Positions 1,328 to 4,369 of a DNA stretch of 4,369 bases are shown here, in pieces. Each line of letters begins with the position of its first letter. The first letter of the stretch is position 1. The notes under the pieces are model-generated. The model saw only the letters and a program-made list of their open reading frames with translations. It made no database searches and was not told where the DNA came from. Origin of the DNA: a virus (taxonomy: Duplodnaviria > Heunggongvirae > Uroviricota > Caudoviricetes); IMG/VR virus record IMGVR_UViG_3300007747_000098. One strand, written 5' to 3'. The translations under genes and the position numbers were made by a program.

Positions 1328-1615
1328 CTAAAGTCCCAGCCACAACAACCATGCGTCGCGGCGTTCTTTCGGTTGCTCAAAAAACGCTTTGCGCATGCCT
1401 TCGTTAAATGCTGGCAGATATACCCAGTTTTCTGATGCACGCGTCTTTACTGAACCTGGTTTCACAAAGTCAATTGTTGGTAGCTTTGCTGCGTCAATCA
1501 TGGTTCTGACTGTGGATTCCTTGCGGCCGATCATCTTGGCGAATAGTTGATATGGCACCGCTTCAAGTGGATATGGTGCTACCTGAATGAACCCCCCAAG
1601 CTCTGATTCGCTCAT
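1328..1615 (-). CDS. cox: Cox-like excisionase / early-operon regulator (P2 Cox family), 95 aa
   Basis: Track ORF; ATG at 1615 with AGGGAG SD 9 nt upstream. It is divergent from the repressor, about 90 aa, and contains motifs I recall from P2 Cox (PYQ-FAK-IG, TVR-MID-KLP, WVYLPA, WL-WLGL). Similarity is from memory, not a search. Confidence 0.75.
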   Translation of the reverse strand: MSESELGGFIQVAPYPLEAVPYQLFAKMIGRKESTVRTMIDAAKLPTIDFVKPGSVKTRASENWVYLPAFNEGMRKAFFEQPKERRDAWLLWLGL

Positions 1616-1728
1616 TGTGGTAATCTCCCTAATTCGTTCGAATGGCTCAAAATGGCTTATATCGGCTTATTTGAGTGTTTTTATATTTGTGCCCGATGTG
1701 GCATGTTGTGATGGAGGATATGCCCGAT
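1616..1728. promoter_or_regulatory. Divergent cox/C intergenic region (candidate lysogeny switch) with phased direct repeats
   Basis: 113 bp between the divergent cox and C starts. Three 7-bp repeats at exact 10-bp phasing (TGGCTCA 1643-1649, TGGCTTA 1653-1659, CGGCTTA 1663-1669). Two copies of a 15-mer with inverted outer arms (TGCCCGATGTGGCAT 1690-1704 and TGCCCGATATGGCAT 1721-1735), 31 bp apart; the second overlaps the C start codon. Confidence 0.5.
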
Positions 1729-2049
1729 ATGGCATCTTTGTCAAGCATGGGTGAAAAATTTCGCCTGATTCGTGAAGCAGAAGGTATGACCCGCCAGGAG
1801 TTTGCGGATTGTGTTGGGCTGCCTTATGGGACGGTAACTAACTATGAGGTGAGGGGGAAGCAAGTAACAGAGGGTGCCTTACTTAAGGTTACGAAACACC
1901 CTAAATTTAAGAAGTATGCTTATTGGTTATCAACAGATGAAACGATGCCGGAGGTCGGGCAAATTTCTCCGGCTCTCTCTCTTGATGGTTCCTGCAATTC
2001 GGAGGGAGATCGCGTTTCAACCGAAACAATCCAAAAATTATCCCGCTGA
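1729..2049 (+). CDS. C: P2 C-type immunity repressor (HTH), about 106 aa
   Basis: Track ORF 1675..2049 starts at a GTG. I prefer the ATG at 1729 (MASLSSMGEKF...) because GGAGGA at 1713-1718 sits 10 nt upstream and the length then matches a ~100-aa C repressor. HTH segment MTRQEFADCVGLPYGTVTNYE; C-terminal GQISPALS resembles P2 C as I recall it. It lies directly upstream of and co-oriented with int. Confidence 0.75.
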   Translation: MASLSSMGEKFRLIREAEGMTRQEFADCVGLPYGTVTNYEVRGKQVTEGALLKVTKHPKFKKYAYWLSTDETMPEVGQISPALSLDGSCNSEGDRVSTETIQKLSR

Positions 2050-2145
2050 GGCCAGAAAACTGGTTAGACCTGCTTTTTGTCTGGTCTGATTATTGCTGGA
2101 AAGAGGCTGGAGAAATTGTAGAGCGGTTCATTGGAGGGCTTCGTA

Positions 2146-3150
2146 ATGTCGATTAAGAAGCTCGAAGATGGTCGTTATTTGCTGGACATCAGGCCGAACG
2201 GACGCAAGGGAAAGCGCGTGCGTAAGGTATTTGACAAAAAATCGGTAGCGGTGGCCACTGAACGCTACATCATGGCGAACGCTGAAAAGCGGGAATATAT
2301 ACAGGGCTACCGTGATCGTCGAACGCTAAATGATTTGCTTGAGTTGTGGTGGATGTATCACGGCCAGCACAGGCGTAAGGCGGAAGAAGACCGAAAACAA
2401 CTGCGCAACATAATCAATGAGCTTGGCGCTGATATGCAGGCTGTGGCTCTTGATAAGCTGAAAATTATCGCGTGGCGTTCTCAAAAGATAGCTGATGGAT
2501 TGAAACCGTCATCTGCTAACAGGTACATGAATCGGTTATCCGGAATGTTTACCGTGCTGAAAAAAATAGGTCTTTGGGATGCAGAACATCCAGTAAGGGG
2601 AATTTCTATTCTTTATGTATCTCCACGAGAAATGGCGTTCCTGTCACAGAAGGAAGTGGCGCTATTGCTCGATACACTGGAGGGCGACTACTGGCGTGTT
2701 GCGCTTTTGTGTTTAAGCACAGGGGCGCGCTGGAGTGAAGCTTGTAAGCTTCGTGGTGAACAGATAGTTCATAACCGTGTAACGTTTCTTGAAACCAAAA
2801 ATGGCCGGAAGAGAACAGTGCCAATTTCGCAGGCAGTTTGTGAGGCGATCAAAACCAGAGAAACAGGCGGCTTGTTTGAGGTGAAGTACCGGGAATTCTG
2901 CCTGGCGCTGAAAAGAGTTAAGCCCGATTTACCAAAAGGCCAGGCTGCACATGTGCTGCGGCATACGTTCGCCAGCCATTTTGTGATGAACGGAGGAAAC
3001 ATTATTGCGCTTCAGAAGATTCTTGGTCACGCAACCATTCAGCAAACAATGGCATATGCGCATTTTGCACCGGATTACCTGCAGGATGCGGTGGCCCTTA
3101 ATCCGCTGAAAGGTGGCGTAAGTGTCCACGCAGTGTCCACGGGGGATTAA
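2146..3150 (+). CDS. int: Tyrosine recombinase / phage integrase, P2 Int-like, 334 aa
   Basis: Track ORF 2131..3150 starts at TTG. ATG at 2146 (MSIKKLEDGRYLLDIRPNGRKGKR...) has GGAGGG 7 nt upstream and matches the P2 Int N-terminus as I recall it (MAIKKLDDGRYEVDIRP). Tyrosine recombinase catalytic signatures are visible: LSTGARWSEA (Arg), HVLRHTFASH (His-x-x-Arg), ILGHATIQQTMAYAHF (Tyr region). Confidence 0.9.
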   Translation: MSIKKLEDGRYLLDIRPNGRKGKRVRKVFDKKSVAVATERYIMANAEKREYIQGYRDRRTLNDLLELWWMYHGQHRRKAEEDRKQLRNIINELGADMQAVALDKLKIIAWRSQKIADGLKPSSANRYMNRLSGMFTVLKKIGLWDAEHPVRGISILYVSPREMAFLSQKEVALLLDTLEGDYWRVALLCLSTGARWSEACKLRGEQIVHNRVTFLETKNGRKRTVPISQAVCEAIKTRETGGLFEVKYREFCLALKRVKPDLPKGQAAHVLRHTFASHFVMNGGNIIALQKILGHATIQQTMAYAHFAPDYLQDAVALNPLKGGVSVHAVSTGD

Positions 3151-3308
3151 TTTTATATAGCCTGAAACGGCTTAAAGGGCGATACTGAATAACAATTTTT
3201 CAGTATTGCCCGTCTAAATGGTTATGTTGTTATCTGTATGATTATTAATGTTTTTTCAGATTAAACAGCAGTTTGCAAATGGGCGTTTGTTGATAAAGGA
3301 GACTTAGA
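3151..3308. other. Candidate prophage attachment-site / phage-host junction region (attL or attR)
   Basis: AT-rich non-coding stretch between the int stop and the host pdxB RBS. Contains an 8-bp inverted repeat with 9-bp spacer (ATACTGAA 3182-3189 / TTCAGTAT 3199-3206), TTTTTCAG repeats and a small dyad AGCC-N6-GGCT (3159-3172). The core cannot be placed without the other prophage end or an empty site. Confidence 0.4.
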
Positions 3309-4369
3309 TTGTCAGAGACTGAAAAAGGGTTAAAAATCCTTGTTGATGAAAATATGCCTTATGCCCGCGACTTATTTAGCCGTTTGGGTGAGGTGACCGC
3401 GGTTCCCGGGCGTCCAATTCCTGTCGCTCAACTGGCAGACGCGGATGCGCTTATGGTGCGTTCGGTCACGAAAGTGAATGAATCTTTGCTGGCAGGAAAA
3501 CCCATTAAATTTGNNNNNNNNNNNNNNNNNNNNNNNNNNNNNNNNNNNNNNNNNNNNNNNNNNNNCAGACGCGGATGCGCTGATGGTGCGTTCGGTCACG
3601 AAAGTGAATGAATCTTTGCTGGCAGGAAAACCCATTAAATTTGTTGGCACTGCCACTGCGGGGACCGACCATGTCGATGAAGCATGGTTGAAGCAGGCGG
3701 GAATTGGTTTTTCCGCTGCACCTGGCTGTAATGCGATTGCGGTGGTGGAATATGTTTTCTCCTCACTACTGATGCTTGCCGAACGCGATGGATTTTCACT
3801 GCACGACCGTACGGTGGGGATCGTGGGCGTTGGTAACGTTGGACGTCGATTGCAGGCGCGACTGGAAGCGTTAGGGATTAAAACATTGCTTTGCGATCCG
3901 CCTCGCGCTGACCGTGGGGATGAGGGTGATTTCCGCTCGCTGGATGAATTAGTTCAGCATGCGGATATTCTGACTTTCCATACGCCACTCTTCAAAGATG
4001 GGCCGTACAAAACGCTGCATCTGGCGGATGAAAAACTGATCCGTAGCCTGAAGCCGGGAGCGATTCTGATTAACGCCTGCCGTGGCGCAGTCGTCGATAA
4101 TACTGCGTTGCTGACCTGCCTGAATGAAGGCCAGAAGTTAAGCGTAGTGCTGGATGTCTGGGAAGGCGAACCGGAACTTAACGTGGAGTTGCTGACAAAA
4201 GTGGATATCGGCACGCCGCATATCGCAGGTTATACCCTGGAAGGTAAAGCACGCGGTACTACGCAAGTGTTTGAAGCCTATAGCAAGTTTATTGGGCATG
4301 AACAGCACGTTGCGCTGGATACATTACTGCCCGCGCCAGAGTTTGGTCGCATTACGCTGCATGGCCCGC
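3309..4369 (+). CDS. pdxB: Erythronate-4-phosphate dehydrogenase PdxB, 3'-partial; reading frame interrupted in this assembly by an N-gap and duplication at 3514-3643
   Basis: Translation before the gap ([62 protein letters not shown]) and after it in frame +1 (…[23 protein letters not shown]…[12 protein letters not shown]…ITLHGP, open to the window end) matches E. coli PdxB as I recall it. Deleting the 130 extra bases restores one continuous frame. Start is either TTG 3309 (AAGGAG SD 3296-3301) or ATG 3354; see findings. Confidence 0.9.
3436..3513 (+). repeat. 78-bp direct duplication of pdxB coding sequence, copy 1 (left gap flank)
   Basis: Copy 1 at 3436-3513 and copy 2 at 3566-3643 are identical over 78 bp except one base (T at 3452 vs G at 3582; CTT vs CTG, both Leu). 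Confidence 0.9.
3514..3565. other. Run of 52 N (scaffold or assembly gap)
   Basis: Literal n characters in the sequence. Together with the 78-bp duplication this adds 130 bases (130 mod 3 = 1), which shifts pdxB from frame 0 to frame 1. Confidence 0.95.
3566..3643 (+). repeat. 78-bp direct duplication of pdxB coding sequence, copy 2 (right gap flank)
   Basis: See copy 1. Consistent with two contig ends that overlap by 78 bp being joined with an N spacer instead of merged. Confidence 0.9.

Follow-up and report, generated by a model that had tools for sequence, protein, structure and literature searches.

Phage 21 and e14 integrate in icd with a surrogate gene end, and SpyCIM1 at mutL and phi10403S in comK silence their target gene until excision. 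P2-type integrases mostly target intergenic sites and only rarely non-tRNA genes (PMC3448106). Fels-2 and SopEPhi in ssrA and the 186-type phages in tRNA genes keep the target functional by means of a surrogate gene end (PMC3448106), and PhiNP integrates in ssrA with the 3' end of the gene reconstituted (PMC6456863). The closest described system is Citrobacter phage PhiSM, the integration of which was mapped to pdxB of E. coli K-12 (Magaziner et al. 2019, J Bacteriol, PMC6456863). A phage TTG with AAGGAG at -7 was noted for PhiSM, and the MG1655(PhiSM) lysogen grows like the wild type on M9 glucose, prototrophy being reported for MG1655(PhiSM) only (PMC6456863). Besides this paper, none was found in the literature searched that links pdxB to phage integration. 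We analyzed a stretch of 4,369 nucleotides (the window; IMG/VR record IMGVR_UViG_3300007747_000098) in which a phage integrase gene (int) is followed by pdxB, a gene of vitamin B6 biosynthesis. Window positions 3151-3332 are the integrase-proximal attachment junction (attR) of a P2-like prophage of the genus Xuanwuvirus (Peduoviridae). Replacement of the pdxB 5' end by phage signals is already known, having been published in 2019 for the sister phage PhiSM (PMC6456863).

The prophage was located at full length in strain WP5-S18-ESBL-09, a lysogen 100% identical to the window, where it measures 35,450 bp (~35.4 kb) and is flanked by flk and pdxB. Its closest classified matches over the C-int-att region (window 1600-3340) are Xuanwuvirus P884B11 (phage P88_4B11, NC_049391), with 99.6% nucleotide identity, and PhiSM (Shae_phiSM), with 95.9%. 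It shares with PhiSM the genus, the att site, the TTG, the AAGGAG Shine-Dalgarno (SD) sequence and, in all likelihood, the preservation of pdxB function; the window differs in coming from a natural E. coli lysogen, whose prophage is a P88_4B11-type relative.

The best overall explanation, to which we assign a probability of roughly 0.85, is that the window contains the attR of a P88_4B11/PhiSM-type Xuanwuvirus prophage inserted in pdxB, and that a cassette supplied by the phage restores the full PdxB. The integrase would recombine at a 20-22-bp core within pdxB codons 2-8, shifting the native promoter, 5' untranslated region (UTR) and GTG start 35 kb away to the other prophage end (attL). There the native signals would drive only a 14-codon dead-end open reading frame (ORF) running into a strong phage hairpin terminator. 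On its int side the phage has a cassette in which a strong SD is followed, after a 7-nt spacer, by a TTG and seven linker codons that continue in frame into the core. This cassette heads a 21-codon ORF in attP, and integration would splice this head onto pdxB. PdxB would thus be made complete in the lysogen, longer by seven residues at its N-terminus (385 aa vs 378 aa), the cells would stay prototrophic, and pdxB would be transcribed mainly by read-through of the lysogenic C-int transcript from the promoter Pc. The present analysis establishes both junctions and the core, and shows that the free phage carries the cassette, that the cassette is invariant and how prevalent it is.

As at the 3'-end reconstituting att sites, the core lies inside the gene (here codons 2-8) and a phage segment restores the ORF. 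Here, however, it is the 5' end that is replaced, the surrogate is non-homologous to the host sequence (SD, start and linker are all unrelated), and the transcription signals need replacing too. The 5' cassette is a mirror image of the familiar 3'-end reconstitution, and a clean case of a phage equipped beforehand with a 5' cassette for translation initiation, so that a highly conserved coding sequence can serve as its att site. Beyond the 2019 paper, the analysis adds the GTG start, the extent of the core with its crossover interval, the cassette in the free-phage attP and the swap of terminators. It also adds the incompatibility of the published promoter with the SD, a prevalence of 5.6%, the inconsistent annotation and the evidence from prophage remnants.

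The att core and the two prophage junctions

The junction is described by the following features of the window.

3122-3140, + strand: P-arm Int arm-type sites, two exact copies of GTGTCCAC 11 nt apart within the int 3' end
3151-3332, + strand: attR phage segment (P side of attP), the entire region upstream of pdxB, unrelated to the empty locus and identical in the free-phage attP
3333-3354, + strand: att identity block AAAATCCTTGTTGA(T)GAAAATA, corresponding to pdxB codons 2-8, from comparison of attL, attR, attP and attB
3333-4369, + strand: pdxB coding sequence (CDS), host-derived and running off the window end, assigned by NCBIfam NF011966 and DNA identity

Every one of 5,426 complete E. 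coli genomes gave a pdxB match in a megablast search with window 3100-3513, and in the prophage-free genomes the alignment begins exactly at 3333. The same breakpoint was obtained in pairwise and three-way alignments, and pairwise alignment found no similarity between the empty locus of strain OV24 and the window upstream of 3333. A first-pass annotation, made from the letters of the window alone, had proposed that the prophage replaced the promoter, 5' UTR and start codon of pdxB and that the native upstream region now lies a prophage length away. Both proposals are borne out: the sequence at 3290-3332 is not native, the core lies at 3333-3354 and not upstream of 3290, and the other prophage end, 35,450 bp off, carries the shared core together with the native signals. 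At this attL in WP5-S18-ESBL-09, the native flk-pdxB intergenic region and GTG start are followed by AAAATCCTTGTTGAgGAAAATA and then by phage DNA. The native pdxB start codon is GTG in both MG1655 and OV24. The ATG that the same annotation had given as canonical for E. coli is therefore wrong, and the PhiSM paper likewise assumed ATG where the codon lost is GTG.

The intact attP of the free phage NC_049391 reads ...AAGGAGcCTTAGATTGTCAGAGACTGAAAAAGGGTTA, then AAAATCCTTGTTGAGGAAAATA, then ATAGTGG.... The identity block spans 22 bp with one mismatch at 3347, where attP and attL carry G and attB and attR carry T. From this distribution, strand exchange is placed to the left of 3347, within 3333-3346 (codons 2-6). 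The core of most related prophages carries T, and there the identity ends after 20 bp. The published 17-bp att site ATCCTTGTTGATGAAAA corresponds to window 3336-3352 and is found at attL, attR, attP and attB; the identity block defined here is longer (20-22 bp) and includes the AAA codon. The TTG stands 24 nt before the core, in contrast to the 41 bp given in the PhiSM paper.

About 45 nt past the core, the P' arm of attP carries a matching pair of arm-type sites, TGTCCACGCAATGACCAC. The arm motif (GTGTCCAC/TGTCCACGCAATGACCAC) is the reverse complement of the P2-type arm consensus tgTGGaCa (PMC3448106). Just past the P' arm lies a perfect hairpin with a 19-bp stem (-34 kcal/mol, z-score -9.5). 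After integration, the native pdxB promoter at attL drives only VKILVEENNSGLIF and a stop codon, a 14-codon ORF, ahead of this P'-side hairpin. The prophage resembles P2 in the gene order cox / C / int / attP, with a Pe-like site and a presumed Pc between cox and C, in its Cox-family directionality factor and in the arm repeats on both arms. It differs from P2 in core specificity and in that matches to the P2 cox-box consensus (TTAAAGNCA) are not enriched in the window, none falling within the junction.

Several further observations concern att usage. Directly past the 20-bp core the P' side is hypervariable (at least 8 haplotypes in 47 attL junctions), and it is conserved again from ...TTGATATAAAAGGATT; on the P side, upstream of the core, there is almost no variation. 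In IMGVR_UViG_2724678986_000024 (3664-3760) the same phage occupies a secondary site inside a UvrD-like helicase gene. That site encodes an ILVDEYQD motif whose codons mimic the core (AAAATCCTTGTTGATGAAtAT), and there, too, the host ORF downstream continues the frame of the phage TTG. In strain EC190759 the phage adjoins a glycoside-pentoside-hexuronide transporter gene and not pdxB. The 14-bp attP reported in the P88 paper, GCCACCCGAAGGTG (PMC5285337), is absent from this prophage and from P88_4B11, indicating that Xuanwuvirus members differ in att specificity. The core was not found in the searched genome contigs of other species that carry integrase relatives (at most 82% identity); those relatives therefore use other sites and provide no independent test of the cassette. 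Most IMG/VR integrase loci are trimmed at the int stop, so that they were useless for attR, and a scan with the core pattern gave mostly attL junctions.

The translation start of the fused pdxB

Three features bear on where translation of pdxB begins.

3296-3301, + strand: Shine-Dalgarno AAGGAG, phage-encoded, the sole copy on either strand of the 4,369-nt window
3309-3332, + strand: TTG start and seven linker codons (M-SETEKGL), phage-encoded, taken from the ORF list and used as the annotated start in some genomes
3354-3356, + strand: alternative ATG (native Met9), without an SD, the annotated start in most lysogens (AVS0366 and others)

An in-frame TAA at 3294-3296 precedes the TTG at 3309, with no other start in between, and a 7-nt spacer separates the TTG from AAGGAG. 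Counted from the TTG, the eight codons for MSETEKGL, ending with the TTA at 3330-3332, lead in frame into AAA ATC CTT at 3333. The coordinates given for these elements in the first-pass annotation, including the int stop at 3150, are all correct. Because AAGGAG occurs only once in the window and does so 7 nt before an in-frame start, its placement is not due to chance. In the free-phage attP the SD, TTG and linker already stand at the head of a 21-codon ORF that spans attP. With the 20 nt upstream of each start, the predicted duplex with the 3' end of 16S rRNA amounts to -8.7 kcal/mol for the TTG, -3.8 kcal/mol for the native GTG and +0.4 kcal/mol for ATG 3354. No variation in the SD, TTG or linker occurs among 15 unique attR/attP sequences, and the 182-nt segment 3151-3332 is 94-100% identical across all relatives.

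The cassette would be irrelevant if pdxB were translated from the internal ATG at 3354, which would yield a 370-aa PdxB without its first eight residues. ATG is intrinsically stronger than TTG, and a promoter-like TTGTCA-17-AAAAAT (3309-3337) could yield a short-leader transcript. The Prokaryotic Genome Annotation Pipeline (PGAP) also favors this start: among 40 evenly sampled lysogens it annotates pdxB from ATG 3354 (370 aa) in 30 and from the TTG (385 aa) in 10, the choice differing even between lysogens with identical DNA. However, the ATG has no SD complementarity, and starting there would remove KILVDEN, which shows little or no variation at PdxB N-termini. Among 34 such N-termini, the residues K9, V12, D13, E14 and N15 (fusion numbering) never vary, whereas I10 and L11 are each kept in at least 90%. 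In an AlphaFold (AF2) model of the first 68 residues (mean predicted local distance difference test score, pLDDT, 76), residues 8-13 (LKILVD) form strand β1 and residues 1-7 are coil. A start at Met9 would, by this model, delete strand β1, and the 7-residue extension would be a free tail. The solved PdxB structures 3OET and 5DT9 carry 3-6 additional N-terminal residues. A protein search with the 68-aa N-terminus returned short fragments only and no independent N-terminal extension variants. PhiSM lysogens match wild-type growth without B6, and an internal start would leave the phage cassette, with the sole AAGGAG in 4.4 kb lying 7 nt before an in-frame start, as an unexplained coincidence. We regard translation from ATG 3354 as quite unlikely and infer that TTG 3309 is the start actually used. 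The PGAP start at native Met9 is probably wrong; the RefSeq start annotation is in any case inconsistent, most lysogens being given a truncated 370-aa PdxB that would lose the first β-strand.

Prevalence, prophage remnants and the source of pdxB transcription

The int-pdxB junction is present in 303, and the 182-nt phage segment in 304, of the 5,426 complete genomes (5.6%), and the carriers of the junction are spread over many lineages. About 1 in 18 complete E. coli genomes would thus express a gene of an essential pathway from signals supplied by a phage. In every lysogen or remnant for which the full-length CDS was retrieved, pdxB is an intact, non-pseudogene CDS, and it is unflagged in five more for which only the 5' part was available. 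It may still be argued that pdxB is silenced in lysogens, the in-frame start being fortuitous and the cells living on exogenous B6 or on bypass pathways. In favor of this, gut E. coli can salvage B6 vitamers. Such silencing is hard to reconcile with a junction so widespread, with the intact CDS in the lysogens and remnants examined, or with the wild-type growth of MG1655(PhiSM) on M9 glucose (PMC6456863), and we consider it extremely improbable.

In some genomes the prophage has decayed. Strain NT1W25 keeps only 686 bp upstream of the core, beside an insertion sequence (IS) with its transposase on the opposite strand. In SMN197SH3/2014C-3011 the prophage is kept from window position 2256 onward, behind a same-strand IS3, and in VE-F10 everything left of 1835 is lost. 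Each of these retains an intact pdxB and cassette. IS elements or deletions have taken away most of the phage in NT1W25, SMN197SH3 and VE-F10; what survives in every case is the 3' end of int together with the attR cassette and pdxB. No remnant with less than 686 bp upstream of the core was found among the 304 genomes.

The question of transcription involves the lysogeny genes and one structure downstream of int.

1328-1615, - strand: cox, excisionase and Pc repressor, first gene of the early operon (Pfam Phage_Cox, E 1.3e-22; annotated by PGAP as 'Cox family DNA-binding protein')
1715-1744, - strand: Pe-like promoter for cox, TTGACA-18-TATCCT, matching 10/12 consensus positions (position weight matrix, PWM, score 12.7)
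1729-2049, + strand: C-type immunity repressor with a helix-turn-helix (Pfam HTH_3, 21.4 bits, slightly under the 23-bit cut-off; called C or immunity repressor in phage records)
2146-3150, + strand: tyrosine integrase, int (Pfam Int_N, E 8.8e-23; Phage_integrase, E 1.2e-22)
3176-3210, + strand: hairpin or inverted repeat with a 13-bp stem in the int 3' UTR, without a U-tract; not a canonical terminator and not called as one

In P2, int is transcribed together with C from Pc (PMC3936717, PMC3448106), and Pc is repressed by Cox (PMC3936717). The order cox / C / int / att in the window, taken from the ORF list and annotation, is that expected for a P2-like lysogeny module. A Pc facing Pe is presumed to drive C and int; neither the consensus scan nor the PWM gave a candidate for it above background. 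On the + strand of 3151-3308 the consensus scan called nothing resembling a sigma-70 promoter, and from int to pdxB it called no terminator-like site. The sole strong terminator of the C-int transcript lies past the core and is lost on integration, so that Pc read-through into pdxB is structurally expected.

A promoter within the junction would make pdxB independent of prophage regulation. The 2019 paper proposed one, with -35 TTGCAA at 3273-3278 and -10 TAAAGG at 3294-3299 (PMC6456863), and the intact pdxB of the remnants that lack Pc suggests that some Pc-independent transcription is present. The proposed promoter is incompatible with the SD noted in the same paper: its -10 overlaps AAGGAG (3296-3301), and RNA initiated about 7 nt further on would have its 5' end 2-4 nt ahead of the TTG and would not contain the SD. 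In addition, the -35 and -10 are 15 nt apart, the final T that is conserved in -10 hexamers is missing, the site was not called by the consensus scan, and its PWM score is 3.2 vs 6.9 for the native pdxB promoter candidate. Better candidates, still at chance level, are TTGCCC-16-TGTTAT (3206-3233), with a score of 8.0, and CTAAAT-17-TATGAT (3214-3242), with 7.0, on this rough PWM; the native candidate is comparable to both. The promoter predicted in 2019 is implausible, and transcription of pdxB from it, free of prophage control, is highly unlikely.

We infer that pdxB is transcribed mainly by Pc (C-int) read-through, possibly aided by a weak local promoter around 3206-3242. Since remnants without Pc keep pdxB intact, Pc would not be the exclusive source unless promoters borne by IS elements or lying elsewhere upstream substitute for it. 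In those remnants pdxB would be transcribed either from a weak local promoter within the last ~0.7 kb or from such substitutes. RNA from 3151-3230 is predicted to fold at -28.2 kcal/mol (z-score -5.4), and a natural C-to-T variant of the 3176-3210 stem (in PhiSM and CFSAN004176) keeps G.U pairing in the + strand RNA only. The variant hints at a role at the RNA level, in processing, stability or attenuation, and the conserved hairpin may modulate read-through. The IS insertions in 95NR1 and FY10 were considered as evidence on read-through and set aside, as they sit in or beside cox and not between Pc and pdxB.

A coupling of B6 synthesis to the regulatory state of the prophage is plausible. Taken further, and only tentatively, pdxB might be chiefly a 3' extension of the Pc C-int mRNA, on together with immunity and off through Cox at induction, with the attR-proximal ~0.7 kb locked in. 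The locking-in would follow from the host's only pdxB initiation signals being phage DNA, and, if the Pc coupling is true, it would explain why this part is retained in all 304 genomes, decayed remnants included. In that case the lysis-lysogeny switch would bear on vitamin B6 synthesis as well. The downstream genes usg-truA-dedA, which we take to be co-transcribed with pdxB, might be carried along on the C-int mRNA. The arrangement resembles SpyCIM1 and phi10403S in that a prophage-like element lies at the beginning of a host gene, or close to it, and influences the expression of that gene. It differs in that the ORF is restored, with SD and start, while the prophage is integrated, and PhiSM lysogens are prototrophic; no switch behavior turned up here, none having been sought.

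Several points weigh against a phage cassette that restores PdxB on a Pc-derived transcript. Three independent remnants lack Pc and C, two of them half of int as well, yet pdxB is intact in each. As to a local promoter in 3151-3308, the best PWM score of 8.0 is reached by 85% of shuffled sequences, and the strong hairpin at 3176-3210 could attenuate read-through from upstream. TTG is a weak start codon, and PGAP selects it in only a quarter of the sampled lysogens (10/40). The invariance of the cassette, considered as a sign of selection, is a weak one, since the available relatives are all at least 94% identical in the segment. The explanation at this junction is, moreover, read from the DNA sequence.

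The pdxB sequence and other prophage genes

The pdxB DNA of the window is 97-100% identical to the annotated pdxB in all E. coli genomes of the megablast search, which makes the assignment of the gene secure. The pdxB frame is broken within the window by the following feature.

3514-3643, no strand: assembly artefact, 52 N (3514-3565) followed by a 78-nt repeat of 3436-3513

The two copies of the 78-nt duplication (3436-3513 and 3566-3643) differ by a single mismatch at 3452 (T vs G), which is synonymous. The frame break is a scaffolding artefact in which two contig ends overlapped, and not biology. The 267-aa fragment after the N-run matches NCBIfam NF011966 (PdxB) with 596 bits and E 2e-179; the 687-bit cut-off is unreachable for a fragment. 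In E24377A (NC_009801.1, 2608110-2608290) and two other genomes, the 5' 180 nt of pdxB diverge from the common E. coli allele, with an identity of only 80-90% (87.3% in E24377A).

The regulatory end of the P2-like prophage takes up the left three-quarters of the window and includes one DUF4761 gene. Beside attL, the prophage carries cargo genes (prophage locus 4590-7717) for a TagO-like protein, a zinc-ribbon protein, a RES-family NAD+ phosphorylase and a Hok/Gef toxin. The replication endonuclease of the WP5-S18-ESBL-09 prophage is frameshifted, and ParM, together with a partition-protein pair, is encoded near the prophage replication gene (prophage locus 31189-32464).

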